Shown one piece after another: positions 2,280 to 62,820 of a DNA stretch of 64,000 nucleotides. This DNA comes from Patescibacteria group bacterium (GTDB lineage: Bacteria; Patescibacteriota; Minisyncoccia; Phycocordibacterales; Phycocordibacteraceae), in NCBI GenBank assembly GCA_018826905.1, contig JAHJYC010000004.1, positions 141,717-205,716 of the forward strand, in the 5' to 3' direction. The notes beneath the pieces are model-generated. The model was not told the origin of the DNA. It saw nothing but the letters and a program-made list of their open reading frames with translations, and searched no databases. The number at the start of each line of letters is the position of its first letter. The first letter of the stretch is position 1. A program made the position numbers and the translations under genes.

Positions 2280-3962
2280 TTAGGCGTCCGATCGGTCAGA
2301 CAGCACGGGACCTGATGGTTTCAGTGCTGTTCCTGGCTTCAGGCGCTTTAGAGAGGCAACAAGATCTTTAAACTCTTGGTTTGCAAGTAGTGCCAGAACT
2401 GCTGCCGCTACCGTCAGTCCCACCATACCAGCAAGCGTAGCTTCAGCAAAGACAATGAAGAGCGTGGTTGCAGGAGCGAGGGAGGCGGTAAACGTAAGAA
2501 CGCCATAACTTGTTGCCCCTCCAAGAATGGCCGCCCCAAACCCTTCAAACAACGGACGAAGCAGACTCTTTGCTACTCCCGGTGCAACACTCTTTAGTGT
2601 AAGGAGTGCAATAGCTCCGGTTGCCAACTGGCCCAGGGCCGCTCCAAGTGCAATAAGAAGAATTTCAGAACCTGGCGTGTCCTCAATTCTAAACAAGGCT
2701 TCAATAAAGTACTTGAACAGTGGGAAGCTCTCAGCAAGTGCCAACGCTCCCCACGCAAAGAGAACTGAAATAATAGCTCCAACTGCTTGAATAACAAGTG
2801 GGTTCCAAGACTTTTGTGCAGCGTAAAATGCGCGTGACGCAAGCAACACAAGTCCTTGCGCAATAAGCGCTGAAACAAGTACAGCAAGGATAGCGGCAGT
2901 AAGCTTTGTTGCGTTCCAATCAAACGCTCCCGTTCCAAGTACGATGCGTACTATATGGGCACGCAATACGAGCGTAAGCACTGCAACAATGGCTGACCAA
3001 AAAATAATATGTCTAGCCGCAGCAGAGAGTGTTGATTTAAACGCTTCATACCGTTTTGCTTCCATAGACTCAGCAAGCACAGGGAATGCTGCAGTTGCGT
3101 AGGAGGCGCCTATAAGAGAGAGCGGTACTGCCTGCAAGTTACTTGCAAGGGTATAGACTGCAATACTTCCTTCACCAGTTCGTGCGGCAAGAATAGTGAG
3201 TAGCAGGGTCGTTATAGACCCCATAGCAAGCGCAAGAGAACGTGGTACAGAATCCCGTACTACCGGCCACAACAATTTTGGATCTGGGAGCGTGAGCGTA
3301 GGGACTAGCTTTGCCTGCATAAGAACAGGGACGTGGACGAGCAGATGCGCAAGTGCACCAAGCAATACACCCACACCAATTCCGGTGAGTCCAAACAGTG
3401 GATACAACACAACCGTACCGAATATGATTCCTAAATTGTAGAGAACTGGAGAAAGTGCAAATAGAACAAATCTCCTGCTAACCTGGGTTACGCTCGTAAT
3501 AATCCCCGACAATCCAAGAAGTATTGGCTGGATTAAGAGAAGACGCGTGAGCAAAACAAATGATTCGGCATGTTGAGATGTCGCTGCATTCGGGAACAAA
3601 ACAAAGATGAACGAAGGAACAAATAGTGCCAACAACAAACACAACAGTCCTCCTCCTATAAGAAGAAAGGACGCTGTTTGTGAAAGAAGTTTTCTATTTT
3701 GCTCTTTGCTTCCCCCCGTAATGCGCGGGATAAGTACGTACGCAGAAACTAGTGATGCAACGAGAGCAAACACTAAGTCAGGCACCTTAAAAGCCGCATA
3801 GTACAGATCCAATATTTCACCCGCGCCAAAACTGTGCGCAAATAATCGGTCTCGTAAGAGAGCCAGTATCTGGGAAGCCAGGGTAAGGCCCGCAAGCACG
3901 TACGCGGCCTGGTGAAGGCCGCGTACTGGTGCTGAGAGTGTTTTTAGGATTGCGCGAACCAT
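2280..3962 (-). CDS. murJ: Lipid II flippase MurJ (MviN family).
   Basis: 560-aa polytopic membrane protein. The N-terminus (LLRDRLFAHSFGAGEILDLYYAAFKVPDLVFAL) matches the MurJ/MviN signature region. Confidence 0.8.
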   Translation of the reverse strand: MVRAILKTLSAPVRGLHQAAYVLAGLTLASQILALLRDRLFAHSFGAGEILDLYYAAFKVPDLVFALVASLVSAYVLIPRITGGSKEQNRKLLSQTASFLLIGGGLLCLLLALFVPSFIFVLFPNAATSQHAESFVLLTRLLLIQPILLGLSGIITSVTQVSRRFVLFALSPVLYNLGIIFGTVVLYPLFGLTGIGVGVLLGALAHLLVHVPVLMQAKLVPTLTLPDPKLLWPVVRDSVPRSLALAMGSITTLLLTILAARTGEGSIAVYTLASNLQAVPLSLIGASYATAAFPVLAESMEAKRYEAFKSTLSAAARHIIFWSAIVAVLTLVLRAHIVRIVLGTGAFDWNATKLTAAILAVLVSALIAQGLVLLASRAFYAAQKSWNPLVIQAVGAIISVLFAWGALALAESFPLFKYFIEALFRIEDTPGSEILLIALGAALGQLATGAIALLTLKSVAPGVAKSLLRPLFEGFGAAILGGATSYGVLTFTASLAPATTLFIVFAEATLAGMVGLTVAAAVLALLANQEFKDLVASLKRLKPGTALKPSGPVLSDRSDA

Positions 3963-3977
3963 GTACGCCCGTGAGAA

Positions 3978-6404
3978 CTACTGTGCTGGGGCATTAGTTG
4001 CAGACTCATTAAGGGATCCTTGTGGAATTCCAAGTGCTCCAAGGCGCGATGGTGGGAATGGGTTTCTTCCCTGGCGAAGTGCTGCGAGATCAGCTGCAAT
4101 TGCTTCTTCATTCTCAGGTGAAAGTGCGGCAACTGTTTCAAGCTCTGCAATAGCCCTGTCATACTGGCCACTGATACCGTACATAACTCCTAGGAAGAAA
4201 CGGGCATTAGCATACTGAGGATTCAGTTCAACAGAGCGTGCAAGTGCCTGAATTGCTCCAGGATTATCTCCGTTTGCTGATCGCAAGATTCCTACCTGGA
4301 AAAGTACTACAGGGTCATTCGGTGCGAAGTACGCTGCGGCTTCAGCTGCCTCAAGTGCTTCACGTGCACGGCCCTGTTGCACTGCGAGCTGTGAGAGCAA
4401 GAAGATTGCCTCAGTGTAATCACGCTTTAGGTTAATTGCTTGCATAAGGTTCTCCTCAGCTGCTTCTGCATTTTCGTTTGCAATCTCAAGCTGAGCGAGA
4501 ACAAATGGAAGTGTTGGGTTTGTTGGGTTAAGCGCAACTGCTCTATCGTATGCAGCCTTAGCATTGTCATACGCACCTTCAATGTTAAGTGGCACAACTG
4601 TCTGGTACACGTTTCCAAGGATTGCCCAATTCTGATAGTTGTTTGGGCCAAGTCTTGTCGCAGTGAGTGCTGCTTCAATACTTCCAGAGAGTGCCTGCTG
4701 GAACTGTTGCTGTGCATCTGCAGCGGCTAGCGTGCTATCTGATGCAATGGTGTTCATACGAGCAATTCCAACACCTGCAGCAAGCTGGTATGCGCGATCT
4801 GAAGGAGCAAACAGTATTGAGCGTGCAATATCTGCTTCTGCTTCTTCTAGGTTTCCAGAAGAAAGCGCAACGGTTGCTTCAGTGTATGCAACTCCTGCAA
4901 GGTAACGCTCAATAACAACGTACGCTGCAACGATAGAGGCAAGGAGAAGCAGTGTAAGCCCAAAAACGATAATGAATCCGATGCGTGGACTGCGCGCGAA
5001 GATAACTCCCCACTCCCGAGCATTCGTTCCATAACGGAGCGAAGACACAAAGAGTCCGACTAGCAAGAACCCAGCAAGCAAAACAAGTGGTCCAGGGACG
5101 TTAAATATCGCAAGCGCAAGCACGTACAGCACTCCTGTGAAAGAAGCTGCTGAGACAAACCGCACAAACGGATCCTGTGGCATGCGCAGAAGGAGCGCAC
5201 GAAGACCAAAGAACAGGAAGAGACCAATGAAACCAAGCCATGCAAGTGCTCCTACAAGTCCTGTAGTAACAAAAGACGACGGAATGAAGCCAATGCCTGA
5301 CGTAAAGTCTATGTTCCAGAAGATGGTGTCGTTTAGACTCCTGTCTTTAAACTGAATCCACTGAGCGCCAAATGTTCCAGGCCCTGAACCAAAGAGCGGA
5401 GAGGAAGCATAGGTATGCCCTCCAATATCAAAGGTTGATTGCCATGATGGACGAACATCAACAACACTTGTTCCAAGTGCTGATACAAGCGCATTTCCAA
5501 TTGTTGATCCTCCAATGAGGAAGAAAAGTGAGATGGCGAGTACTGCGAGAGGTGCCGCGAGCGAGCTTGATGCACCTGCCTCCTCTTCAGTCTCAGTCTC
5601 AGCGAGCATGAGTGCAACTCCATCTAAATCAGAATCGTCTGCCATAGGACGACGACGCATAATCGCTTCAATAAAGAGCGCAAGCGAAACGAGCGCAATG
5701 AGAGACCACACAACTGCTGAGTTCACGAGAGCGAGCATCAAGAGACCGAGTCCTCCTCCTATAAGAAGGAGCGTGCGCTTTCGTCCGGTAACTGCAAGTA
5801 GACGAAGTGCTAGGAGGATCACGGTAACACCGAGTCCCACGAACATACCGAAGTCAGCAAATGAGCCGATTAGGTTTGTTGTCGGTGAGATAAAGCTTGG
5901 TGCAATGCGTCCAAGGACAAGAATCAGTACCTGCGCAACAAGCGTAATACCGAATACAAATGAACTTACCTTAAAGAAGGTCTGATAGCTCTGAGTGCGT
6001 CGGAACGCGAGGGCCGTAAGCGTTGCGAGCATTGCGAGAATCAATACAAAGCCAAACGTGTCTGTCTCAAGTTCAGTTCCGAAGAATCCGTTCTGAATTC
6101 CCACTCCTGAAAACAAAGATGAGAACAGATAAGCAAGCGGTACGAGCCAGAGTGCTCCAAGAAGTGGTAGTGGAGGCACAATCACATTGCCACGAGTAAG
6201 ACGCGCAAGAATGAAGAGCGCTAGCGTAACAAGTGCTCCGAGAGCAATGATAGTTACTTTCGTGTAAAGGAACGGAATTGTAATAACAGGGATAAAGGCG
6301 ACAACGCTTATTGCAAGCGTAAGAACTGCTGCCCAACTTGTGGCAACATCAAATGACAAACGCTTTGTGCGCGCCGGTCGTACTCCAGATGAATTCTCGT
6401 GCAT
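3978..6404 (-). CDS. Polytopic membrane protein with an O-antigen ligase/Wzy-like core and a C-terminal TPR repeat domain.
   Basis: 808 aa. The N-terminal ~550 aa carry about 10 TM helices of Wzy_C type. The C-terminal ~250 aa contain several TPR-like repeats (AYDRAVALNP..., ALARSVELNPQYANARFFLGVMYGISGQYDRAIAEL). Confidence 0.55.
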   Translation of the reverse strand: MHENSSGVRPARTKRLSFDVATSWAAVLTLAISVVAFIPVITIPFLYTKVTIIALGALVTLALFILARLTRGNVIVPPLPLLGALWLVPLAYLFSSLFSGVGIQNGFFGTELETDTFGFVLILAMLATLTALAFRRTQSYQTFFKVSSFVFGITLVAQVLILVLGRIAPSFISPTTNLIGSFADFGMFVGLGVTVILLALRLLAVTGRKRTLLLIGGGLGLLMLALVNSAVVWSLIALVSLALFIEAIMRRRPMADDSDLDGVALMLAETETEEEAGASSSLAAPLAVLAISLFFLIGGSTIGNALVSALGTSVVDVRPSWQSTFDIGGHTYASSPLFGSGPGTFGAQWIQFKDRSLNDTIFWNIDFTSGIGFIPSSFVTTGLVGALAWLGFIGLFLFFGLRALLLRMPQDPFVRFVSAASFTGVLYVLALAIFNVPGPLVLLAGFLLVGLFVSSLRYGTNAREWGVIFARSPRIGFIIVFGLTLLLLASIVAAYVVIERYLAGVAYTEATVALSSGNLEEAEADIARSILFAPSDRAYQLAAGVGIARMNTIASDSTLAAADAQQQFQQALSGSIEAALTATRLGPNNYQNWAILGNVYQTVVPLNIEGAYDNAKAAYDRAVALNPTNPTLPFVLAQLEIANENAEAAEENLMQAINLKRDYTEAIFLLSQLAVQQGRAREALEAAEAAAYFAPNDPVVLFQVGILRSANGDNPGAIQALARSVELNPQYANARFFLGVMYGISGQYDRAIAELETVAALSPENEEAIAADLAALRQGRNPFPPSRLGALGIPQGSLNESATNAPAQ

Positions 6405-6519: not shown

Positions 6520-6868
6520 CACGAATGGATACCGGTCCGATAAGCCGAATTCTGTCCCTTCAAAGAAGAGGACGGTCATCTATCTGGGAGTGTTGTTACC
6601 AACACCCTCAAGCGGCGCTCCCGCACGAGGACGGGCACGGCCTTGCACAGGGGTAAGGATTTAGCCGTTTCAGCTTGAAGTCACCTTCAGGACACTCTTA
6701 GAAAGAGTCTCTATCCTTTCGGAATTGAGCGTTTCTGTTCGCACCTCGCGCCTTTCGGCGGACGGGCGTTACCCGCTACCTGTCTGCAGCGAACTGCCTG
6801 TGTTCGGACTTTCCTCTCTACAATACAAGTATCATAGAGCGACCGTCTGGGCCGGTCCATATATATTA
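6520..6868 (-). ncRNA. rnpB: RNase P RNA (bacterial M1-like RNA).
   Basis: The minus-strand sequence carries the universally conserved P4 and neighbouring elements. These are GAGGAAAGUCCGAACAC (E. coli GAGGAAAGUCCGGGCUCC), GGUAACGCC in the P10/11 region, and the 3'-proximal GACAGAAUUCGGCUUAUCGGACCGG (E. coli GACAGAACCCGGCUUAUCGGUCAG). The 5' segment CCCAGACGGUCGC aligns with E. coli CCAGACAGUCGC, and the P1 ends can pair. The region contains no credible ORF. Confidence 0.75.
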
Positions 6869-49626: not shown

Positions 49627-50112
49627 CTACTGAATACTACCTACAAGACCTGTGAGCGTAGGGCTACCACTCCACTTCTTAATCAGATTGCCTTCAGCAT
49701 CTACCTGAACAAGTGTGTGCTGAGTTGTTACTCCATATTTCTTCTTAAGCTCTGTCTCTGTATCATAATCAAGCTTTAAGATACTCACGTTTGCAGGTAT
49801 TGCCTCTAGATTGTTCTCAATGTCCGCATTAAGTCCTCTACATGAAGGACACCACGTTGCATGAAAGAAGAGGACAACATCTCCCTCTTTAGCTCGTGCT
49901 AGCTTTTCAGGAGCGTATGCTTCGTATAACCCAGTCTTCATCATGTCCTCTCCTTTTTCCATTCCCTCCTCCGTCGACATATCCTTCTCACCTGTCTGAC
50001 TCGTTTCATCTTTCACGCTCACATCAGCACTCTTGTTCATAGATGCGTATGCAAATCCAGCAATCGCAATGAGCGCGACAACTGCAATGCTAATCCCTGC
50101 GGTTTTATTCAT
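49627..50112 (-). CDS. Membrane-anchored thioredoxin-like protein (TlpA/ResA-like), the likely reductant partner of the Msr fusion.
   Basis: An N-terminal TM helix and a WCPSC active site (FFHATWCPSCRGL). It sits 3 nt upstream of the CcdA-MsrAB gene on the same strand. Confidence 0.75.
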   Translation of the reverse strand: MNKTAGISIAVVALIAIAGFAYASMNKSADVSVKDETSQTGEKDMSTEEGMEKGEDMMKTGLYEAYAPEKLARAKEGDVVLFFHATWCPSCRGLNADIENNLEAIPANVSILKLDYDTETELKKKYGVTTQHTLVQVDAEGNLIKKWSGSPTLTGLVGSIQ

Positions 50113-50133
50113 AGAATCGTTACTGGTTATACC

Positions 50134-50159
50134 CTTACTATGTAACTAATTGTAGTAAG
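50134..50159. repeat. Inverted repeat CTTACTA-N12-TAGTAAG in the thioredoxin upstream region.
   Basis: Seen directly in the sequence: 7-bp arms located about 20-45 nt upstream of the trx start on the minus strand. Confidence 0.35.
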
Positions 50160-50201
50160 CACTGAGCCAGATGTAAAGTGTACTTTACATCTGGCTCAGT
50201 G
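50160..50201. repeat. 42-nt near-perfect palindrome CACTGAGCCAGATGTAAAGT-gt-ACTTTACATCTGGCTCAGTG.
   Basis: 20-bp perfect arms. It lies between the XRE/membrane-protein operon stop and the trx-msrAB operon start, and no U tract follows in either orientation. Confidence 0.6.
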
Positions 50202-50215
50202 GATAACGAACGGTT

Positions 50216-50578
50216 CTACAGATACTTGTCGCTCCAGATACGGGTTCCGATCTTAACCAAGATCATTGCAATGAGTGCAATAACGAGCCATGGATCTACA
50301 GTGTGTGTGTACCCCTGCACAACAATGCCCAATGTCAGAACTCCTGAACCGACTAAGAACGCATTCCTCCCCGCTAGAGTACGGTGCAACCCGTCGCGTT
50401 CATCCTCTACTTTCTCTCTCAGAATAAAGCTTGAAAATACTCCAAAGAGCCCCAGGGTGACTGCGAGCATACAGATTACGATCATGTCTGGCATCCAGAA
50501 ATGGAAAGGATTGAGAAGCAGGATTGCGAGCGCAACCAGACATAGTGTGACGATGGTTTCTATAAGATTATTTTTCAT
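50216..50578 (-). CDS. Small polytopic membrane protein (DUF2975-like) that is typically paired with a YozG-type HTH regulator.
   Basis: 120 aa with 4 TM helices. It overlaps the upstream XRE gene by 11 nt. Confidence 0.45.
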   Translation of the reverse strand: MKNNLIETIVTLCLVALAILLLNPFHFWMPDMIVICMLAVTLGLFGVFSSFILREKVEDERDGLHRTLAGRNAFLVGSGVLTLGIVVQGYTHTVDPWLVIALIAMILVKIGTRIWSDKYL

Positions 50579-50780
50579 ATGAAATTCTGAATAGCTTCTC
50601 CACAGGCATTTTGAAGAAACCTGCTATTTTCAAGGCCAGTAAAATTGATGGTGTGTAGTTCCCCTTTTCTAAAGCAATAATAGTCTGCCGACTCACATTC
50701 ACTTTTGCGGCAAGCTCTTCCTGCGTCACATTCATCTGTGTTCTATAGGTACTCACTTCATTCTCTATCGTTCCTTGCAT
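50568..50780 (-). CDS. XRE-family (Cro/C1-type) helix-turn-helix transcriptional regulator, YozG-like.
   Basis: 70 aa. MNVTQEELAAKVNVSRQTIIALEKGNYTPSILLALKIA is a classic HTH_XRE. Confidence 0.75.
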   Translation of the reverse strand: MQGTIENEVSTYRTQMNVTQEELAAKVNVSRQTIIALEKGNYTPSILLALKIAGFFKMPVEKLFRISYEK

Positions 50781-53144: not shown

Positions 53145-53528
53145 ACCAGAAGTCCTGACATTCAATTCCCCTACCTGTAGCATCCCCTATTTGAAGGCTG
53201 GAATGGGCTGCGATGTTCGGTCTGGTACCAGAGCGACCAAGCTTCTAGGCCACCGTGTACCACACCACGACCTCACTCCCCGACCCCAATAGGTCGCCTT
53301 GGCACTAGATTGATCAGGAGTATATTTGGGGATTATTTATGGGAAGTTTGTGGGATAGAAACGGCTATCTTTCCACCATATAAACGCACCTTTCGAAAAG
53401 GTGATACGGCCTAAAACAAAGATATTTTGCGAGAAAATGAATTTTATAGTGGTAAAGGCGGCTAAGGATAACCCCAAACGACCCCACTTCAAATCATTAA
53501 GATAATCCACACCCCTTCCCCATACATA

Positions 53529-54356
53529 TCAAGGGCGCTTCCACATAACTTCCATCTCTTTTTCGGACTTTTTAGGATGCGTGCTGAAAAGAAGTGTAGA
53601 ACCTTCCTTCGGGAAGTCTTCAATACGAACGACATCCGGTTCTAGGTCAAAATGCTCTGTAACTACACGAAGAGATTCCAGAACTGACACAAACACCTCC
53701 TTAGTAGCAACAGTCTTAAGAAAGTTTATATATGGACGATCCTGTAGGAAGTCTCGGTTCCCAAACTGAGCATGGGTGAACCCGGAGAGTCGTGAGTAAA
53801 GTGGGGCATGGGTGTCTTTGAGATCGAGCTCTGAAAATATCTCGCTTATACTCTTGCCGTCCCAGTGATGCCTTCTCTTTCCTGCTGGCTTATGACTCTT
53901 TAGTTCCTCCTGCATTTTCCTGAGCAACTTGGCCTGCAATTCGGATATATTCGGTAGACTTTCCGTTCGCATCACATACTCACGTAGTGGATAGTGATAA
54001 AAATTCCGCGCTCGCTGCTCCGTGTCCTTTTGATAGATGTATTGGAGATTTATGGAGTTCTCAAGTAGAGACCGTGCAAGTGTGAGGCATGGAAGGAATC
54101 TGCCTTTCTTGCGTAGAGTGATAATAGACTCGTATATGTCTATATTCTCCTCTACCAGGAAACGCGTAACTGCAAAAAGCTCTGGAGTGGTTTTCCTTTC
54201 CAGCTGACTTAGGTTTGAAAGATATCTGTGCAGGAATACTACGATCTCTCGCAGGTCCTTTATCTCTCCACTTTCCCAGAATCTAAGCATATACAGGGAG
54301 TATATGCTTCCTGGCCAGGATGACGAATTAGGGATTAAATTCACTCGCACCAACAT
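53529..54356 (-). CDS. Hypothetical alpha-helical protein carrying a HEPN-like Rx5H motif (YSRLSGFTHAQ); a candidate Abi/HEPN RNase-like protein.
   Basis: 275 aa in the AT-richer region flanking the integrative island. Its start overlaps the upstream membrane-protein gene by 29 nt, so the two are likely translationally coupled. Confidence 0.35.
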   Translation of the reverse strand: MLVRVNLIPNSSSWPGSIYSLYMLRFWESGEIKDLREIVVFLHRYLSNLSQLERKTTPELFAVTRFLVEENIDIYESIITLRKKGRFLPCLTLARSLLENSINLQYIYQKDTEQRARNFYHYPLREYVMRTESLPNISELQAKLLRKMQEELKSHKPAGKRRHHWDGKSISEIFSELDLKDTHAPLYSRLSGFTHAQFGNRDFLQDRPYINFLKTVATKEVFVSVLESLRVVTEHFDLEPDVVRIEDFPKEGSTLLFSTHPKKSEKEMEVMWKRP

Positions 54357-55005
54357 ATTTACCTACGACAGCACTCGACTTGGAGGCTGCTGGGAAGAAA
54401 GACAGTGTATTCCGATACAGCATGTTCTCTAGTTCGCCGTCGAAAGACGCGATGTAGTGCCGCTCAAGCAATGCTGTTTCCTCAGCAGTACGTGCTCTTC
54501 CAAGAGAAAGAGTGCCGTATTGGCGATACGCTAGATTGAGCGCATTCGCATCGTCAAAGAAATTGAGTGAGACTTTCGTGCCATGCGCTTTGGTCAGATC
54601 ACGAACCCATCCCGTAACATTATTCTTGAACGAAGCATCTGATAGCTCCACTGGGTCTATGAGCAGATAGAAGACAATTCCTCCATCAGATCGCTCTTTA
54701 GAAGTTTGTACGATTTGGGGTGCTGTAGGCACCAGAGACTCACTTACTGACTGGACTTGTGCAATTGATTCAGTTGTTGCTGGGGTTTCGGCCTCAACCT
54801 CTATAGAAGGCTCAACGGTCGTAATCACAGGAGGCTTAGAATCACTCGGAGGAGCCGTGGCACCAAAAAGAATAAAGAGAACCACTAGCGTAGCTCCAAA
54901 ACCAAGTCCGATGACTTTTCTAGACTGCTTAAAGACTGAAGGCTTAATCAAACCAACGACAAGTCCGACAAGAGACACGAAAAACAGAAAGAGAAAAATA
55001 CCCAT
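54328..55005 (-). CDS. Hypothetical membrane-anchored protein (N-terminal TM helix, Pro/Thr-rich linker, globular C-terminal domain).
   Basis: 225-aa ORF. The left copy of the island direct repeat lies within codons ~25-31. Confidence 0.4.
   Translation of the reverse strand: MGIFLFLFFVSLVGLVVGLIKPSVFKQSRKVIGLGFGATLVVLFILFGATAPPSDSKPPVITTVEPSIEVEAETPATTESIAQVQSVSESLVPTAPQIVQTSKERSDGGIVFYLLIDPVELSDASFKNNVTGWVRDLTKAHGTKVSLNFFDDANALNLAYRQYGTLSLGRARTAEETALLERHYIASFDGELENMLYRNTLSFFPAASKSSAVVGKYVGASEFNP
54908..54929 (+). repeat. Left direct repeat CCGATGACTTTTCTAGACTGCT (attL-like).
   Basis: It matches 60931-60951 at 20/21 positions with a single 1-nt indel; 16 nt are identical (ACTTTTCTAGACTGCT). 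Confidence 0.6.
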
Positions 55006-55290
55006 ACGTAGTTCCTTTAAGGCGAGTAAGCCTAGAAGCGGAATTGTGCGGGTAGCACAAAACCCGCCACCAGGAGCCCGAAGGCCTATAGAAGTTTCCC
55101 TCTATAACGTAGGACACGCCCTGATGACGGGTTTTCTATGTCCTACGATTTTCGACCATGCTCGGGATTCCTCCGCAGGTTTAGGTCATTCTTATTCAGT
55201 TGTTGCCCAGGCTTAGCGCCGTACTAGAACATTAGCGTACAAACGAGAAAGTGTGTAGGTCAGAGCCATAAGCGAGTATAATTTGACTCA

Positions 55291-57597
55291 ATGCCCGATT
55301 ACAATTTCCAAACCCTTAACGATAGAGAGTTTGAGAGGTTAACTCGTGATTTATTGCAAAAGGAAACAGGTCTTACGTTCGAGAGTTTTAAACCTGGGCG
55401 TGATGGGGGTATAGATTTACGCCATTCCTCTCCAACAGAAGATGTGACTACTATTGTTCAGGCAAAGCATCGAGTCCGAGCCAGCTATAAGGATCTTTTG
55501 TATGACCTCAGCAAGACTGAGCTACCAAAAGTTAAGAAGCTGGAGCCCTCACGTTACATATTAGTAACTAGTGTTGAATTTAATCCCGCCCAAAAGAAAG
55601 AACTGAAGAATCTTTTTGCTCCCTATGTTCTTACGACTGGAGATATCCTTGGTAGAGATGACTTAAACGGACTGCTCGGAAAATTTTCTGAAATTGAAGA
55701 GAAGCATCCAAAACTATGGTTATCGAGTATTCCTATACTTAATAAGATTGTAAATAACGGTATAAAGGGCCGTTCTGATTTTACAGACGAAGTGATTAGA
55801 AAGAACGTAAGCCTATATGTAGCCAATGAAACATATGCCGAGGCTCTTGAAATTCTTAACGAAGAACAATTTCTTGTAATAGTTGGGGAACCGGGAATCG
55901 GAAAGACGGTTCTTGCAAAAATGCTTATTTATCAGTTGCTTGGAAACGACTACAGACTCGTGACTGTAACAGAAAAGATCTCCGAAGCAGAAGATTTGTG
56001 GGAACCTGAACAGAAACAAGTGTTTTATTTCGATGATTTTCTTGGAGCCAACTACTTAGAAATAGCTCAGTATCATAACGGTGATTCAGCCCTAGTGAAC
56101 TTTATAGCCCGAATAAAATTAGATCCTCTTAAACGTCTTATGCTGACGAGCAGGACTGCAGTTTTGAACCAAGCGGCTCAGGTTTATCCGCGTCTAGAAG
56201 CACCCGGGCTTGAGCTGGCGCGGCACGAAGTAAAAATTGAGGACTACTCAAAGCTAGACAAGGCTCAGATTTTGTATAACCACCTTTACTTTCTAGGTTT
56301 GGGAGAAGATTACAAGCAAAAGGTAAAAGAAGACAAGAATTACTGGAAAATTATAAAGCACAAAAACTATAATCCGCGCCTGATTGAGTTCATTTCTGAC
56401 CCACTGAGACTGAAGGAGGTACCGCCTGAAGATTATATGGGTTTTATACAGGAGAGACTGGATAATCCTGCGGACATATGGAAGCAAGCATATTTACATC
56501 AGACGGACGACTACTGTAAATTCTTGATTCAATCGCTATTTTCTCTTGGCGAAAAAGTTCCCGAACGAATTCTAAAGAGAGCATTTAATGCGCGTTTAGA
56601 CTACGAAATAGAGCACAATGGCTTTCGAAGAGAAGCAGATGTTTATGCATTGCGTCTCAAGCATTTAATGGGCGGATTCTTAAAGGCAGTCAGGCACGGG
56701 GAGAATGTTTATCTCAGTTTCTTTAACCCTTCTATTACAGACTTCTTGTTGCACTACTTAAGTGAGAATAAAGATGAGAAGTGGCGAATACTTAACTCTG
56801 TGATTTTTACATCACAACTTACAAATCGCTTTATAACCAGTAAAGATTCATTGCTCGCGTTCGTCGAGGACGAAATATCGCCACTTGAAGCACTTATATC
56901 GAGAAGAGCTGACGACCTGGTAGACCCAGAAGGCGGATCCAGAGATATAGAGCTACTACACTTTTATTACTTTGCCTTCCCTGTTGATCTTATTGATACT
57001 AAATCTGCACCTATTTTAGAACGCTTGGATCTAGATGAAGCTTTACCATCACAGTTTGATGCATTGCTATCAACTCTTGATGCACTTCAAACATACGACG
57101 AGTCAATTCGGATAGTTAAGAGTCGCTTTCGTGAAATTATAAATTATCTTTTTAGTTCTGATACCGGCGGGAGAAAACTTAGTTCTATCAAGAAGCTTTT
57201 CAAGGCCTACGATGAAAGTTATGAGGAATATATTGCTGACGAGAATAGCCGAACTATTGTTGAATCAGCATTAACCCGACACTGGGGCGAGCGAATTAGC
57301 GATATAGAGGCCGGGCAAGATTCAGACGTTGCGGAATTTGGCACTTCTTCTGAGATTGAGACTTTCATAGGAGAAATTCAAGAGGACGGGAGGCAATATA
57401 ATAGGAGTTTTGGGTTCGCTGAACTGCGAATAATGGAAAGTTTCGAAGATATAGATTATGACGAGATTGCAAGATCCTCAAGAGAGCGTGCACAAATAGA
57501 AGACTATATGTCCGACTACCATGCAGAGGAATATTATTCTGAGCGTTCTGAACCTCAAAGAAACGAGAATGCGGAAATAGACGAATTATTTCAATAA
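55291..57597 (+). CDS. Mrr-like PD-(D/E)xK restriction-endonuclease domain fused to a STAND-like P-loop NTPase and a helical C-terminal region (Avs/AVAST-like architecture).
   Basis: The N-terminus FERLTRDLLQKETGLTFESFKPGRDGGIDLRHS...IVQAKH gives a D...(Q)xK Mrr_cat-like pattern. Walker A is GEPGIGKT and Walker B is VFYFDDFLG (hhhhDD, STAND type). A C-terminal ~400-aa alpha-helical region ends in an acidic, Tyr-rich tail. Confidence 0.55.
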   Translation: MPDYNFQTLNDREFERLTRDLLQKETGLTFESFKPGRDGGIDLRHSSPTEDVTTIVQAKHRVRASYKDLLYDLSKTELPKVKKLEPSRYILVTSVEFNPAQKKELKNLFAPYVLTTGDILGRDDLNGLLGKFSEIEEKHPKLWLSSIPILNKIVNNGIKGRSDFTDEVIRKNVSLYVANETYAEALEILNEEQFLVIVGEPGIGKTVLAKMLIYQLLGNDYRLVTVTEKISEAEDLWEPEQKQVFYFDDFLGANYLEIAQYHNGDSALVNFIARIKLDPLKRLMLTSRTAVLNQAAQVYPRLEAPGLELARHEVKIEDYSKLDKAQILYNHLYFLGLGEDYKQKVKEDKNYWKIIKHKNYNPRLIEFISDPLRLKEVPPEDYMGFIQERLDNPADIWKQAYLHQTDDYCKFLIQSLFSLGEKVPERILKRAFNARLDYEIEHNGFRREADVYALRLKHLMGGFLKAVRHGENVYLSFFNPSITDFLLHYLSENKDEKWRILNSVIFTSQLTNRFITSKDSLLAFVEDEISPLEALISRRADDLVDPEGGSRDIELLHFYYFAFPVDLIDTKSAPILERLDLDEALPSQFDALLSTLDALQTYDESIRIVKSRFREIINYLFSSDTGGRKLSSIKKLFKAYDESYEEYIADENSRTIVESALTRHWGERISDIEAGQDSDVAEFGTSSEIETFIGEIQEDGRQYNRSFGFAELRIMESFEDIDYDEIARSSRERAQIEDYMSDYHAEEYYSERSEPQRNENAEIDELFQ

Positions 57598-57658: not shown

Positions 57659-58987
57659 ATGGAGACAACAATGCTCTATGGAGCTCAGACAGCCGCCCCG
57701 GCACACCAAGCAGCGGTTACCGTCAGATACTGCCTGTATGCCCGTAAATCGAGCGAGGCAGAGGAGCGACAGGCGCTTTCGATAGATTCTCAGGTTAACG
57801 AGATGTTGGCCCTAGCCCAGCGAGAGGGACTGACAATTGTCGACATGTACCGAGAATCTCACTCGGCCAAGGATTGCGGGCAACGGCCAGTATTCAACCA
57901 ACTCCTCACAGACATACGCGAGGGTAAGTTTGACGGAATCCTCGCATGGCACCCTGACCGACTCTCTCGCAACGCCGGGGACCTCGGAGCTATCGTTGAC
58001 CTCTTTGATCAGAAGAAGCTTCTTGAGATACGTACCCATAGTCAGCGATTCACGAATAACCCGAATGAGAAATTCCTTCTCATGATTCTCGGCTCTCAAG
58101 CCAAGCTCGAGAATGACAACAAGAGCATTAATGTGAAGCGCGGACTCAAGACTAAATGCGAGCTTGGGCTTTGGCCTTCAGTAGCGCCAACTGGATACCT
58201 CAACTCCAAGAATAAGGACCAGAAAGGAGTCGTATTCGTGGATCCGGACCGAGCACCAATCATCAAAGAACTATTCAACAAAGTAGCCAATGAAGGATGG
58301 AGCGGACGGAAGATCTACCGCTGGCTCAAAGATATAAAGTTCCTCACTCGCACCGGCAAGCCCCTTACACTCAGCAATGTCTACTGTATTCTCAACAATC
58401 ACTTCTATCACGGTTCATTTGAGTACCCAAAGAACAGCGGTCGGTGGTTCCTGGGCAAACATACTCCGCTCATATCCAAAGAGCTCTTTGATGATGTTCA
58501 GAAACAGCTCCATTTACAGATTAGAGCTCCTAATCGAAATAAGGAGTTCGCTTTCACCCGCCTTCTCTCATGTGGCACATGTGAATCTGGCGTAACAGCA
58601 CAGGAGAAGTTTAAGAGTTTGAAAGACGGATCGATCGCTAAATATATTTATTACGGATGTACGCGTGCGCGGAATATTAACTGTAAGGAGGGCTACATCG
58701 AGGAGAGGGTTCTCATCTCTCAATTAACTGTAATCATTGACCAAATCGACCTTGATCGCTCAGGTATTAAAAAGAAGCTTGAACTTGAGATTGAGCGTCA
58801 CAAGAAATTTCACTCAGGAATTATGGGCAAAACCGACGAAGAGTACTTCGCCAAAGATGCAGACATAAGAAATTACGCTAAGTACCTCCTTACCGAGGGT
58901 TCTATCTTTGAGAAGCGTGACTTACTCACCTGTCTGAAAAGCAAACTTCTTCTAAAGGAAAAGATAATATCTACAACCAGTACCTAG
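57659..58987 (+). CDS. Large serine recombinase (resolvase/invertase catalytic domain plus recombinase domain plus zinc-ribbon domain).
   Basis: The N-terminal resolvase motif YARKSS...Q...SIDSQ carries the catalytic Ser. The length of 442 aa and the Cys cluster CGTCESGVT...YYGCTRARNINC (zinc ribbon) are typical of LSR integrases. Confidence 0.8.
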   Translation: METTMLYGAQTAAPAHQAAVTVRYCLYARKSSEAEERQALSIDSQVNEMLALAQREGLTIVDMYRESHSAKDCGQRPVFNQLLTDIREGKFDGILAWHPDRLSRNAGDLGAIVDLFDQKKLLEIRTHSQRFTNNPNEKFLLMILGSQAKLENDNKSINVKRGLKTKCELGLWPSVAPTGYLNSKNKDQKGVVFVDPDRAPIIKELFNKVANEGWSGRKIYRWLKDIKFLTRTGKPLTLSNVYCILNNHFYHGSFEYPKNSGRWFLGKHTPLISKELFDDVQKQLHLQIRAPNRNKEFAFTRLLSCGTCESGVTAQEKFKSLKDGSIAKYIYYGCTRARNINCKEGYIEERVLISQLTVIIDQIDLDRSGIKKKLELEIERHKKFHSGIMGKTDEEYFAKDADIRNYAKYLLTEGSIFEKRDLLTCLKSKLLLKEKIISTTST

Positions 58988-58993
58988 GAATGA

Positions 58994-60850
58994 TTAGGAG
59001 AAATTAAATTCGTCTTCCTGGAGAGCCTGGTCGACGAAAGTAAAGATTTCTTCAAAAGCCGTTATCGTAGTTTTGCTTAAGTCATCTTTCTTAATCTGTT
59101 TTTTCTTTGCCTTTTCCAAGAACAGTTTTGCAAAGATGTTTTTTCGACTCTTTCCTATATATGAAACGTTATCTTTCTTTTGGGGCTTAGGAGCTAGAGC
59201 AAAGTTCTTTGAACCGCCCGCGATTGTTTGTATATCACTTATCGAAAATAGTTCTTCGATATCAGACACATCGAGGGTCTTAACTTTCTTTTCCGCTCGG
59301 GTCTTGTCTCCAGCAAAAATACCCTCCTTAAGATCATCGAACTTGGCTTGACCGACTGGCTCGCCATCAATTACCACACACCACTTCAAATTGTACCCAA
59401 TACAGATCCCTACAAGAGGGTTCAATTTACTCCCCAATGCCCCAACTCCAGGGATAAGAGCGTAGTCCAATTTCTTTCCAAGAACAATTGCCATTGCTTG
59501 CAAATGCATGTAATCACTTACACCTTCAAGAATTACATTTTTCTCTTTGAAGATGAGATTCTGGTGCGGTACGTCGCAGCCGATTGCGTAGTTAACAAGA
59601 GACATTGCCTCCTGCTTATTCTTAGAATTTCCAATTTGAGTCTTAAGGATATTCTCACAGAGTGTGCCTTGATCCTTATCGTTAAAAACAAGAGCCACAC
59701 GATAGATGGTCTCTAATGGAACTAGAGTCGGTGCATGCGTCGTGTAAAGTATCTGGTGACCGAATTTACCACTAATTTTCTCAAAGACTTTAAGGAGGTC
59801 TTTTTGAGCATTTATGTGAAGGCTTCTATCAGGTTCATCCACCAAAATTATGGCCTTCTTTTCTTTTAATGATTTTAGTGCCAACCAGAAAGATAGGAAC
59901 CAGATCATTCCCTGGCTGCGCATTCTAACTGGTAGTTCTTTCCCTTCTTTGGTCCTAACAGCAAAGTCGATATAGTTCTTTTCAACTTCATCCTCTTTCT
60001 CTTTTCTCTTTTCGATATTAAAAACCAACCCAAGTTTATCGTTCTCAATCCCGTGAAGTTTTTGAGAAAAGTCATTTTTCAGGTCGGCAGTAATATCAGA
60101 AATTCGTTTATTGGTTTCATCAAGGCGACGAATGGAAGGCGTCTCTGCAAGAGACTTGAAGGTAAAATCTGCATTCCCAGTAAGCTCCTGGAGACAAGCT
60201 TCCAACCATGTGACCGAAACCCAGCCATCTCCAGTTTCTTCCACCAGATCATCAATTGATATGAAATCTGGAAGCGTATCGCAAGTCCCTCCTTCAAAAA
60301 ATATAAACTCCGGAATGATGTTATCTACAATGAACTTTCCTACATCTGGGGTAAGGATAGAAGCGTCAAACTCTTCTTCATTTTCATCGGCATCTTCCTC
60401 AGCCTCTACCGATGCTGCACCGGTAGACTCGACCTCAAGGTTATTAATTAAGGCATTCTGAAAAGTTGTATCCAATGAGTAGTTCTTTCCATCAAAAGTA
60501 AGAGTAAAATTTGAAATACGGCTTATGGTATTTGGCTTAAATGCCACAACCTCCTTGAATATTTCCTCGTTCGCGAAATTCTCGATTTCATCTAGAATCG
60601 CAGGCTTATCATCAGCTGCCTCGAAAGAAAACTGACATGAGACAACTTGATCAAGCCCTGCTGGGGATTCATACGGGTAGGAGTCCCCATCAAACTCACC
60701 ATTATAAAAATCTCTCAGGGCCTCTAAGATGCTTGATTTCCCCGATTCATTCTGTCCGATCAGAGACAGAATATTGTCACTTTGACCCAAATCAACCTCT
60801 ACCCTAACGATAGATTTGTAGTTGTGAATCTCAACCTTATCTAGCTTCAT
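58994..60850 (-). CDS. OLD-family nuclease (N-terminal ABC-type ATPase plus C-terminal TOPRIM domain); a stand-alone Class-1-like gene.
   Basis: Walker A is GQNESGKSS. The Q-loop, signature and Walker B are present (AIILVDEPDRSLH), and a TOPRIM-like VILEGVSDYMHL...VVIDGE follows. There is no adjacent UvrD-like partner gene. Confidence 0.75.
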   Translation of the reverse strand: MKLDKVEIHNYKSIVRVEVDLGQSDNILSLIGQNESGKSSILEALRDFYNGEFDGDSYPYESPAGLDQVVSCQFSFEAADDKPAILDEIENFANEEIFKEVVAFKPNTISRISNFTLTFDGKNYSLDTTFQNALINNLEVESTGAASVEAEEDADENEEEFDASILTPDVGKFIVDNIIPEFIFFEGGTCDTLPDFISIDDLVEETGDGWVSVTWLEACLQELTGNADFTFKSLAETPSIRRLDETNKRISDITADLKNDFSQKLHGIENDKLGLVFNIEKRKEKEDEVEKNYIDFAVRTKEGKELPVRMRSQGMIWFLSFWLALKSLKEKKAIILVDEPDRSLHINAQKDLLKVFEKISGKFGHQILYTTHAPTLVPLETIYRVALVFNDKDQGTLCENILKTQIGNSKNKQEAMSLVNYAIGCDVPHQNLIFKEKNVILEGVSDYMHLQAMAIVLGKKLDYALIPGVGALGSKLNPLVGICIGYNLKWCVVIDGEPVGQAKFDDLKEGIFAGDKTRAEKKVKTLDVSDIEELFSISDIQTIAGGSKNFALAPKPQKKDNVSYIGKSRKNIFAKLFLEKAKKKQIKKDDLSKTTITAFEEIFTFVDQALQEDEFNFS

Positions 60851-60930: not shown

Positions 60931-60951
60931 TCGATACTTTTCTAGACTGCT
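60931..60951 (+). repeat. Right direct repeat TCGATACTTTTCTAGACTGCT (attR-like), abutting and overlapping the 3' end of tRNA-Gln by 2 nt.
   Basis: See the left repeat. It lies immediately 3' of the tRNA gene on the tRNA strand. Confidence 0.6.
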
Positions 60952-61020
60952 GCGGGACTAGGACTCGAACCTAGATAGACGGTACCAGAAACCGTAGTCC
61001 TACCATTAGACGATCCCGCA
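60950..61020 (-). tRNA. tRNA-Gln (anticodon CUG).
   Basis: The minus-strand sequence UGCGGGAUCGUCUAAUGGUAGGACUACGGUUUCUGGUACCGUCUAUCUAGGUUCGAGUCCUAGUCCCGCAG folds as a cloverleaf with a U1:A72 pair (typical of tRNA-Gln), an ACGGU/ACCGU anticodon stem, loop UUCUGGU, and a GGUUCGAGUCC T-arm. No CCA is encoded. Confidence 0.85.
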
Positions 61021-61517: not shown

Positions 61518-61600
61518 AGAACTAATGCATTAAAGGAATATACCAATAAGTATACCGCTTCTAGACTGCATGCTATGATTCTCCTGTACAACCGAATACG

Positions 61601-61750
61601 CAGTATCAAGAGTGCGGCGAGGGACCTGGCCCTTTGACCCGTCGGCAACCATTCCTAAAGGAAACGGTGCCCCCAGACCCCAACGCGGGAACGATGCCTC
61701 TGTAACGAAACATCTCCCGTAGTGGGAGATGTTTCGTTTCGTACCTTTAT
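61601..61750 (+). promoter_or_regulatory. SAM-I (S-box) riboswitch with an intrinsic terminator expression platform, sitting in the metK leader.
   Basis: Conserved core AUCAAGAGUGCGGCGAGGGACCUGGCCCUUUGACCCGUCGGCAACC ... GGUGCC ... P1 closing GUAUC/GAUGC. This is followed by the hairpin GAAACAUCUCCC-GUAG-UGGGAGAUGUUUC plus a U-rich tract, 17 nt before the metK ATG. Confidence 0.8.
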
Positions 61751-61767: not shown

Positions 61768-62820
61768 ATGTTTCATCTTCTTACGCATTACACGACCGAG
61801 AGCGTTACTGCAGGACACCCAGACAAAGTCTGCGACCAAATATCAGACGCCATCCTAGATGCCTGCCTCACCCAAGACCCAAATAGCCGTGTTGCTGTTG
61901 AAACCTTTGGGAGCCACGGCACACTCATGATTGGCGGCGAGGTTACCACAACAGCCTCTGTAGATTACGAAGCAATCGCACGCGAAGTGTATGCCTCTAT
62001 TGGCTACACAGAAGACCTAGAGGTGCTCTCACGCGTTGTAACGCAGTCCGGAGACATTGCTATGGGAGTAGACACAGGAGGCGCCGGAGACCAGGGAATT
62101 ATGTACGGCTACGCAACGAACGAGACTGATCAGTATCTTCCGTTAGGTGTTGTGCTCGCCCACGGACTCGCACGAAAACTAGAGGAGCTTCGCACGAGCG
62201 GGACACTCCCCTACCTGCGTCCAGACGGAAAGACTCAGGTAACCATAAAGAATGGAGAAGTAATCACCGGCCTCACTTCAACCCAACACACTGAAGAGAC
62301 TGAACTTGAAACAATCCGTGAGGATCTAACCAAGCACCTCTTCACACCAATCCTCGGAGACCTAAGTAACATAGAAATCCTCGTAAACCCAACAGGACGT
62401 TTCGTACAAGGCGGGTTTGAGGCAGACGCAGGTCTTACCGGTCGCAAGATAATGGTAGACACCTATGGAGGACTTATGCCACACGGCGGGGGCTGCTTCT
62501 CAGGAAAAGATGCAACAAAAGTAGACCGCTCTGCAGCCTATATGTGTCGCTTTGTAGCAAAGAACCTTGTTGCAAACGGACACGCAAAGAAAGCACTCGT
62601 CTCAGTTGCCTACGCTATTGGCCGTGTTGACCCAGTTATGGTTGAAGCATTTGATGAGAACGGAAAGAATCTCTCAGAGATTGTGAACACACACTTTGAC
62701 TTCCGTCCTCTTATGATTCGCGAGCGACTTGGACTCACCCGTCCTATATTCCGCGAGACTGCCGCATACGGACACTTCGGAGTTCAGGGCCGTCCCTGGG
62801 AAGAAATTATCTCTCTTTAG
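61768..62820 (+). CDS. metK: S-adenosylmethionine synthetase (methionine adenosyltransferase).
   Basis: The signature ESVTAGHPDKVCDQISDAILDA, GGGAFSGKD-like GGGCFSGKDATKVDRSAAY, and C-terminal AYGHFG. At 350 aa it is somewhat shorter than E. coli MetK. Confidence 0.92.
   Translation: MFHLLTHYTTESVTAGHPDKVCDQISDAILDACLTQDPNSRVAVETFGSHGTLMIGGEVTTTASVDYEAIAREVYASIGYTEDLEVLSRVVTQSGDIAMGVDTGGAGDQGIMYGYATNETDQYLPLGVVLAHGLARKLEELRTSGTLPYLRPDGKTQVTIKNGEVITGLTSTQHTEETELETIREDLTKHLFTPILGDLSNIEILVNPTGRFVQGGFEADAGLTGRKIMVDTYGGLMPHGGGCFSGKDATKVDRSAAYMCRFVAKNLVANGHAKKALVSVAYAIGRVDPVMVEAFDENGKNLSEIVNTHFDFRPLMIRERLGLTRPIFRETAAYGHFGVQGRPWEEIISL

Follow-up and report, generated by a model that had tools for sequence, protein, structure and literature searches.

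AbiB and DitA are two experimentally validated anti-phage proteins of unsettled mechanism. AbiB has been proposed to be a HEPN-like RNase, while DitA belongs to Aditi, a two-gene DitA/DitB system. Aditi was reportedly described by Millman et al. 2022. A member of Pfam family DUF5677 (PF18928), a family without assigned function, appears by sequence comparison to be a distant relative of AbiB and of the C-terminal half of DitA. This protein is encoded downstream of a membrane-protein gene on the minus strand of a Patescibacteria-group genome, within a 64-kb stretch of DNA referred to here as the window; comparison loci are named L001-L137. The reading that seems probable, though with modest confidence, is that the two are separable accessory genes, one for an outward-facing membrane protein and one for an AbiB/DitA-like abortive infection (Abi) effector, located in the LOOT RNA-headed cargo arm of a large serine recombinase (LSR) island.

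Several other described systems bear on this locus. Superinfection-exclusion and lysogenic-conversion membrane proteins, such as lactococcal Sie2009, S. thermophilus Ltp, and T4 Imm, lie next to the integrase in temperate phages. Accepted HEPN families include some in which the motif arginine is partly conserved or missing, and membrane-associated HEPN proteins are known (PMC3710099). DUF5677 is enriched beside serine recombinases in Bacillota (bioRxiv 10.1101/2025.10.07.681051). The LOOT RNA is entered in Rfam (RF03000) as a small RNA (sRNA) of unknown function, and no description of it appears in the main text of Weinberg et al. 2017.

The Gene Pair

The two genes, whose products NCBI lists as hypothetical proteins KJ819_03620 and KJ819_03625, are as follows.

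53529..54290, minus strand: DUF5677 gene, 253 amino acids (aa), with an open frame that extends to 54356; helical bundle plus small beta-hairpin, PF18928.
54328..55005, minus strand: membrane-protein gene, 225 aa; two transmembrane helices, a disordered linker, and a C-terminal alpha/beta domain.

The original prediction described two minus-strand open reading frames (ORFs) that overlap by 29 nt and are translationally coupled through that overlap. Both ORFs exist, at 53529..54356 (275 aa) and 54328..55005 (225 aa), but the overlap arises only if the longest ORF is taken. NCBI annotates a 253-aa DUF5677 protein that starts at Met23 (54290), and all full-length relatives in a 40-sequence alignment (A1) start at Met23 or a few residues away. 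The homolog in L002, which is 62% identical, initiates at the equivalent methionine, 6 nt past an unrelated gene. Residues 1-27 of the AlphaFold2 model have a predicted local distance difference test score (pLDDT) under 50, while most of the remainder exceeds 90. Together, these place the start most likely at Met23, so that the gene spans 53529..54290 and follows the membrane-gene stop codon after a 37-nt gap. Coupling through an overlap is therefore unlikely. Judged from spacing alone, the pair may well be co-transcribed; the usual spacing between the upstream gene and DUF5677 elsewhere is 0-14 nt or a short overlap.

DUF5677 Protein

The window protein matches DUF5677 over residues 67-200 (E 4e-22, 79.4 bits against a cutoff of 27.1; residue numbers follow the 275-aa ORF). 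All 40 relatives aligned in A1, which follows the family down to about 20% identity, match it as well. The protein had been expected to be alpha-helical, and its AlphaFold2 model (pLDDT 89.9, predicted template-modeling score 0.86) is mostly so, a bundle of long helices with a small beta-hairpin. A search of 5.8 billion proteins turned up only 8 DUF5677 homologs. A final homolog search with profile A1 brought almost no additions, and a scan of genome contigs with a single DUF5677 protein gave no match. Alignments A1 and A3 proved too diverse to yield a search pattern, which only a six-sequence alignment (A4) provided.

R95 and H195 are invariant in A1, and E99, Y106, L81, W165, Y187, and S191 are near-invariant. 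The conserved constellation consists of R95, E99, N103, Y106, W165, Y187, S191, and H195. At about 250 aa, the window protein carries the R, E, and H residues of PF18928, and its Patescibacteria subfamily differs from the rest of the family in keeping R189 in addition and in being sited in LSR/LOOT islands. The protein would act as a cytoplasmic single-gene Abi-type effector, with an active or binding site that may combine the invariant H195 with R95 and E99, joined by R189 in this subfamily alone.

The ties to known defense proteins come from a scan of the 40 family members against PADLOC models. AbiB (PDLC02342) is matched by seven members, with a best E of 1e-3. In the window protein, P0002, P0004, P0013, and P0014, AbiB positions from about 9 to 68 align with the R95/E99 helix region, while in P0056 a collinear later segment, AbiB positions 86-138, aligns with the H195 region. 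DitA is matched by six members, among them P0050 (E 1.7e-6) and P0005 (E 5e-5). The matches of P0005, P0003, P0050, and P0008 run from about position 240 to 421 of 486, in the C-terminal half of the DitA model. P0005 shares 57% identity with the window protein and matches DitA positions 297-421, a region covering the stretch from R95 to H195; the matched stretch of P0003 likewise spans this core. The DitA profile differs in its roughly doubled length and its additional N-terminal half, and AbiB differs in its host phylum. One member also matches NsnC of the Menshen system. Taken alone, the gene pair is an unremarkable candidate from a defense island, its DUF protein belonging to a known but uncharacterized Pfam family. 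The putative link to AbiB and DitA makes R95, E99, and H195 a small residue set for probing a mechanism that all three proteins may have in common.

The original prediction took the string YSRLSGFTHAQ for the R-x(4-6)-H motif of a HEPN RNase. The string lies at residues 187-197, and its histidine is the invariant H195. The arginine fares less well. R189 is present in 26 of the 40 members and in 24 of the 26 closest, but it is lost in the other 14, with distant members carrying I, V, E, M, N, Q, or H instead. The residue that follows it is leucine, where the canonical HEPN motif usually has a polar residue. Such strings are also common by chance: the protein contains four, and at least one occurs in 90% of composition-preserving shuffles (mean 2.1). 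R95, the best-conserved arginine, is 100 residues from H195.

Profile and Foldseek searches did not link the window protein to HEPN families either. The window protein has no match among the HEPN-clan Pfam models (CL0291, HEPN_* models) at E up to 1, and the best Foldseek hit of its model in the PDB, at E 0.35, is not significant. PDB sequences likewise gave no match to either sequence or profile queries. Three of the 40 relatives match DUF4145 weakly, at E 0.07 or worse, and a DUF4145 match sought in ten distant members was not found. The lack of a clan profile match, the leucine after the arginine, and the negative Foldseek result all distinguish the protein from the HEPN RNases of Anantharaman et al. 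2013 (PMC3710099). Assignment as a HEPN RNase is a reasonable but unproven guess, and the protein may be HEPN-like, as proposed for AbiB.

Membrane Protein

The membrane protein was originally described as having one N-terminal transmembrane helix and a Pro/Thr-rich linker. It does have an N-terminal hydrophobic anchor and a low-complexity linker that includes Pro and Thr, but the anchor consists of two transmembrane segments, at about residues 1-20 and 30-50, rather than one helix. Between them is a basic KQSRK loop, predicted to be cytoplasmic by the positive-inside rule. Residues 51-100 form a low-complexity disordered linker, with abundant Pro, Ser, Val, Thr, and Glu, which leads to a folded, conserved alpha/beta C-terminal domain at about residues 100-225. 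This domain is predicted to be extracytoplasmic. With an overall pLDDT of 63.7, the structural model has medium quality. Only 4 homologs of the protein were found among the same 5.8 billion proteins.

From its position and topology, the most likely identity is that of a surface or superinfection-exclusion-type protein with its conserved domain facing outward. It shares with superinfection-exclusion proteins a small membrane-anchored form, an external domain, and a gene beside the recombinase arm of an integrated element. No PADLOC model matches it, and hence it supplies no DitB partner for a DitA-like protein.

Mobile Island

The original prediction placed the gene pair just outside a repeat-bounded element. 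Comparison with L001, an orthologous island, places it within a mobile unit whose main landmarks in the window, besides the pair itself, are the following.

57659..58987, plus strand: LSR gene, with Pfam Resolvase, Recombinase, and Zn_ribbon_recom domains; 76% nucleotide identity to the L001 recombinase.
55075..55187, minus strand: LOOT RNA (RF03000), found by cmscan at 58.9 bits against a gathering threshold of 46.4 (E 2e-9), full model 1-121.
53207..53258, no strand assigned: conserved non-coding block with the imperfect palindrome GGTCGCTCTGG-TA-CCAGACCGAAC; blastn 79% identity to L001 7087-7138.

A blastn comparison of the window with L001 yields four conserved pieces: the recombinase gene with its 5′ leader, a 330-nt block that begins 250 nt before the membrane gene and extends into its first codons, the remainder of the gene pair, and the 52-nt palindromic block. 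The cargo between the recombinase and the 330-nt block differs, and the two loci have no flanking genes in common. The LSR, LOOT, the membrane gene, DUF5677, and the 52-nt block thus recur together between different flanks, which puts the pair inside the mobile unit. LOOT lies 69 nt upstream of the membrane-gene start codon on the same strand; it is 75% identical to L001, where it is directly upstream of the orthologous membrane gene. The 52-nt block, about 270 nt past the DUF5677 stop codon, is the last homology to L001 on that side and by its sequence is a candidate element end or recombinase site. A second half-site of its palindrome, sought in the window and at the other island end, gave no convincing match, and no attachment (att) sites were identified.

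The region would accordingly be the cargo arm of an LSR-driven mobile island in a Patescibacteria genome. LOOT is proposed to head the minus-strand transcription unit, either as a 5′ leader or as an sRNA that ends at a helix and U-run, and would be followed by the membrane gene and then the DUF5677 gene, which are probably co-transcribed but functionally separable.

In 5 of the 10 loci retrieved by DUF5677 homology alone, or 6 of 11 with the window, LOOT precedes DUF5677, and in every case the two share a strand. It lies at 5190-5304 in L001, 3302-3421 in L002, 4655-4785 in L012, 217-339 in L013, and 2085-2213 in L015, and the distance to DUF5677 in these five is 0.7-8.6 kb. An independent set of LOOT loci was collected from metagenome contigs with a sequence pattern. 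It comprises 120 loci (L018-L137), 85 of them confirmed by nhmmer. Neither DUF5677 nor the membrane protein was found in any of the 85, even at lenient thresholds (DUF5677 E up to 10). An LSR is encoded within the available sequence of 32 of these loci, and 35 have at least 3 kb of downstream sequence. Upstream sequence of 1.5 kb or more is available for 51 loci, and in nine of these a divergent LSR starts less than 600 nt from LOOT. LOOT is also present on five IMG/VR viral contigs, three of which carry an LSR too.

The first ORF past LOOT encodes an N-terminal transmembrane or signal segment in 40 of 63 loci, against 95 of 411 control ORFs (odds ratio 5.8, p 5e-10). These first ORFs include T4 Imm-like superinfection-immunity proteins in L090, L094, and L128, in a position equivalent to that of the membrane gene in the window; L104 and L119 are further example loci. 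LOOT is characteristic of these recombinase islands, where it stands at the head of a variable cargo arm, in which the membrane protein and DUF5677 are one rare cargo set.

Neighborhoods of the Homologs and Alternative Readings

The order of membrane-protein gene and DUF5677 recurs only in L001, which includes the same long-ORF overlap. DUF5677 is preceded by different genes in nine other contexts (L002, L005, L011-L017). In L002, P0003, the 62% identical homolog, is preceded by a KAP NTPase. The preceding gene encodes a 255-aa protein in L014, itself behind a 1608-aa helicase-nuclease (a fusion of an SF1 helicase and a restriction endonuclease), and in L015 it is a 71-aa ORF behind an 8xMP membrane protein. 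In L016, DUF5677 follows the CBASS effector Cap15 after a 133-nt gap. Homologs of the membrane protein in L004 and L009 have no DUF5677 neighbor. Because the two genes are found apart in most contexts, they are separable modules.

Many of these contexts are rich in defense genes: the KAP NTPase in L002, SMODS with Cap15 in L016, the helicase-nuclease in L014, DUF4238 in L012 and L017, and PDC-S73 in the window. Bacteria of the candidate phyla radiation therefore carry LSR-borne islands with defense cargo that includes PDC-S73, CBASS, KAP NTPase, and DUF4238 genes. An LSR lies within 10 kb of DUF5677 in 6 of 11 contexts, namely L001, L002, L013, L015, L016 (where it is directly convergent), and the window; none is seen in the available sequence of the other five.

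Several points weigh against the reading of an AbiB/DitA-like effector beside an exclusion-type membrane protein. The similarities to AbiB and DitA are weak and incomplete. For the window protein, the AbiB match has an E of just 0.027, over positions 9-67 of 220 (59 positions), and no DitA match reaches the reporting threshold. The earlier suggestion of a tie to Abi systems therefore keeps its distant links to AbiB and DitA, at this low strength. No match was found when the window protein and P0013 were compared by tblastn with phage and plasmid collections, and scans of IMG/VR with both proteins of the pair found no relatives. One DUF5677 ORF has been assayed in Enterococcus faecalis, and it was outside the five ORFs reported as protective against six phages (bioRxiv 10.1101/2025.10.07.681051). 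The defense role proposed for this subfamily is drawn from sequence and context, and co-transcription from the spacing of the genes. The superinfection-exclusion-like role is plausible from topology, position, and analogy, with the medium-quality model described above.

The closest rival holds that DUF5677 is an element-maintenance or regulatory factor of LSR elements, for example one that sets recombination directionality, acts as a regulator, or binds to the terminal palindrome. The repeated proximity of LSR genes fits such a role, as does the fact that DUF5677 is usually the last gene of its array, close to the palindromic block in the window. The Bacillota data agree, with enrichment by serine recombinases and yet an assayed ORF outside the reported protective set. 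Nevertheless, this explanation is unlikely. Its absence from all 85 independent LOOT loci means that DUF5677 is no core function of the element, five of its 11 contexts show no LSR in the available sequence, and its sequence links are to AbiB and DitA.

An obligate two-component Abi or toxin module, which would join a membrane sensor or anchor by translational coupling to a canonical HEPN RNase acting through R189-x5-H195, is close to the original prediction of a membrane-plus-HEPN cassette and is slightly less likely still. The pair and its long-ORF overlap do recur in L001, H195 is invariant with R189 in nearly all of the closest relatives, and HEPN proteins can be membrane-associated (PMC3710099). 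L001, however, is the same orthologous island, and the pairing is therefore a single evolutionary event. Elsewhere, P0003 follows a KAP NTPase and other members follow a Zn-ribbon protein or Cap15, while the membrane protein occurs without DUF5677 in L004 and L009. The conserved Met23 start leaves no overlap, and the conserved domain of the supposed partner is predicted to be outside the cell. The partial loss of R189, the leucine after it, and the negative HEPN-clan and Foldseek searches stand against a canonical HEPN RNase.

That the two are ordinary chromosomal housekeeping-type genes beside an inserted island, with LOOT and the LSR nearby by coincidence, would fit their GC content, which is like that of the left-hand neighbors and near the window mean, and the more distant flank genes (C8, C14) common to the window and L015, but it is very improbable given the extreme rarity of both families, the recurrence of the unit with LSR and LOOT between different flanks in L001, and the fact that 6 of 11 DUF5677 contexts have a same-strand LOOT upstream. 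The original prediction that the genes are accessory rather than a core operon agrees with the rarity of both genes and with their defense-rich mobile island. Its placement of the pair in an AT-richer stretch does not: the GC fraction of the pair is 0.457 against a window mean of 0.469 (25th percentile), and the AT-rich genes are its neighbors, PDC-S73 (0.404) and a 618-aa ATPase gene (0.407).

Other features recur in the neighborhoods of the homologs. Ahead of the more divergent DUF5677 genes, a family of Zn-ribbon-type proteins (weak match) of 350-420 aa is encoded at L011 8739-9998, L012 8872-9936, L013 7804-8901, and L017 3141-4202, and a 196-aa member at L005 3512-4102 is about 0.4 kb from DUF5677. 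The Zn-ribbon-type gene overlaps or abuts DUF5677 in L011-L013, and a GIY-YIG gene lies between them in L017. The two could form a conserved module, possibly a DitA-like arrangement in split form. In L012 and L017, DUF5677 is followed by DUF4238, the known defense protein Rst_DUF4238. In L016, a Patescibacteria metagenome-assembled genome, a CBASS-like SMODS cyclase and Cap15 occupy 989-2581 directly upstream of DUF5677, with the serine recombinase convergent.

LOOT RNA

The LOOT region of the window contains two further elements, one on each side of the Rfam match.

55193..55203, minus strand: conserved box ACAACTGAATA, 5 nt ahead of the 5′ end of LOOT; present in six aligned LOOT loci, with substitutions at three positions.
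55059..55069, minus strand: UGGCGGG followed by a U-run; pairs with CCCGUCA at 55125-55131 in the central LOOT loop.

The box is possibly a -10-like promoter element, as judged from its sequence. A consensus scan places another promoter-like site at 55304-55275 on the minus strand, although the number of such sites is not above that in shuffled sequence. The helix formed by 55063-55069 and 55125-55131, together with the U-run at 55059-55062, resembles a terminator or attenuator and is absent from the Rfam model. It is mutually exclusive with the central hairpin of that model, and the minimum free energy fold of 55048-55190 includes it (-58.3 kcal/mol, z -4.4). The helix covaries across 79 LOOT sequences, with a mean of 6.27 of 7 positions paired against 5.78 ± 0.06 with permuted partners; none of 500 permutations reached this value. 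An orphan RNA thereby gains a context, beside serine recombinases and before membrane-protein genes, as well as a covarying terminator-like 3′ helix, which makes its function experimentally approachable.

A broader reading joins these observations. LOOT would be a cis-acting attenuator RNA of Patescibacteria-wide LSR islands, whose covarying helix and U-run compete with the central hairpin to gate interchangeable surface-protein and defense cargo. DUF5677, AbiB, and the C-terminal domain of DitA would form a previously unrecognized HEPN-related effector superfamily, with an active site of R95 and E99 on one helix and the invariant H195 rather than a canonical Rx4-6H motif. As a whole, this reading is speculative and rather doubtful. 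The idea that LOOT serves DUF5677 as its dedicated type III RNA antitoxin was also considered, and was rejected on the 85 independent LOOT loci that lack DUF5677 even at E up to 10.

Neighboring Genes, Repeats, and Other Features

On the recombinase side lie the following additional features.

55291..57597, plus strand: PDC-S73 candidate defense gene, full-length PADLOC match (E 5e-187); Pfam Mrr_cat and nSTAND3.
58994..60850, minus strand: 618-aa ABC/SMC-type ATPase gene; partial NCBIfam matches, phrog_4747 E 3e-27.
60950..61020, minus strand: tRNA-Gln(CUG), found by ARAGORN and Rfam; island border on the recombinase side.

PDC-S73 combines an Mrr-type restriction endonuclease domain with an nSTAND3 NTPase and is divergent from LOOT. 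It lies 62 nt upstream of the recombinase gene and is co-directional with it, an order that resembles the Bacillota arrangement of a defense gene co-transcribed with a serine recombinase. The 618-aa ATPase gene is convergent with the recombinase gene. Its product resembles the N-terminal ATPase parts of the retron-Eco8 effector and MADS3-like ATPases, and it may be another defense gene of the island. The tRNA-Gln gene was considered as a conserved integration target and rejected, because 15 further DUF5677 or LOOT loci, the majority with an LSR, showed no tRNA.

Repeats and a possible terminator were also recorded.

54914-54929 and 60936-60951, plus strand: exact 16-nt direct repeat ACTTTTCTAGACTGCT; the left copy is in codons 26-31 of the membrane gene, and the right copy abuts the tRNA-Gln 3′ end.
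53387..53403, minus strand: terminator-like hairpin CACCTTTTCGAAAGGTG from a consensus scan, followed by T-rich sequence; the DUF5677 stop codon lies 126 nt before it.

LSRs are not known to require long direct repeats. The original prediction located the left repeat of the element inside the 5′ end of the membrane gene, and the repeat is indeed exact and present at that position. As an att site or element boundary it was rejected and judged coincidental: the 64 kb hold two families of repeated 16-mers against an estimated 0.5 or so expected in random sequence, which is near chance level, and in L001 the N-terminus of the membrane gene is contiguous and conserved across the site, with the repeat absent. 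The hairpin CACCTTTTCGAAAGGTG is suggestive at most, as such sites are no more numerous than in shuffles.

A second exact direct repeat, the 20-nt AGTCCTCCTCCTATAAGAAG, occurs at 3646-3665 and 5749-5768, about 2.1 kb apart. Window positions 49627-50780 and positions 17185-18410 of L015, a Paceibacteria locus, share flank genes that lie a few kb past DUF5677, while the cargo of their islands differs, which suggests a shared chromosomal hotspot or integration region. The window also encodes housekeeping RNAs, with a class A RNase P RNA at 6525-6858 on the minus strand and a SAM riboswitch at 61600-61700 on the plus strand, upstream of an ORF at 61768-62820.

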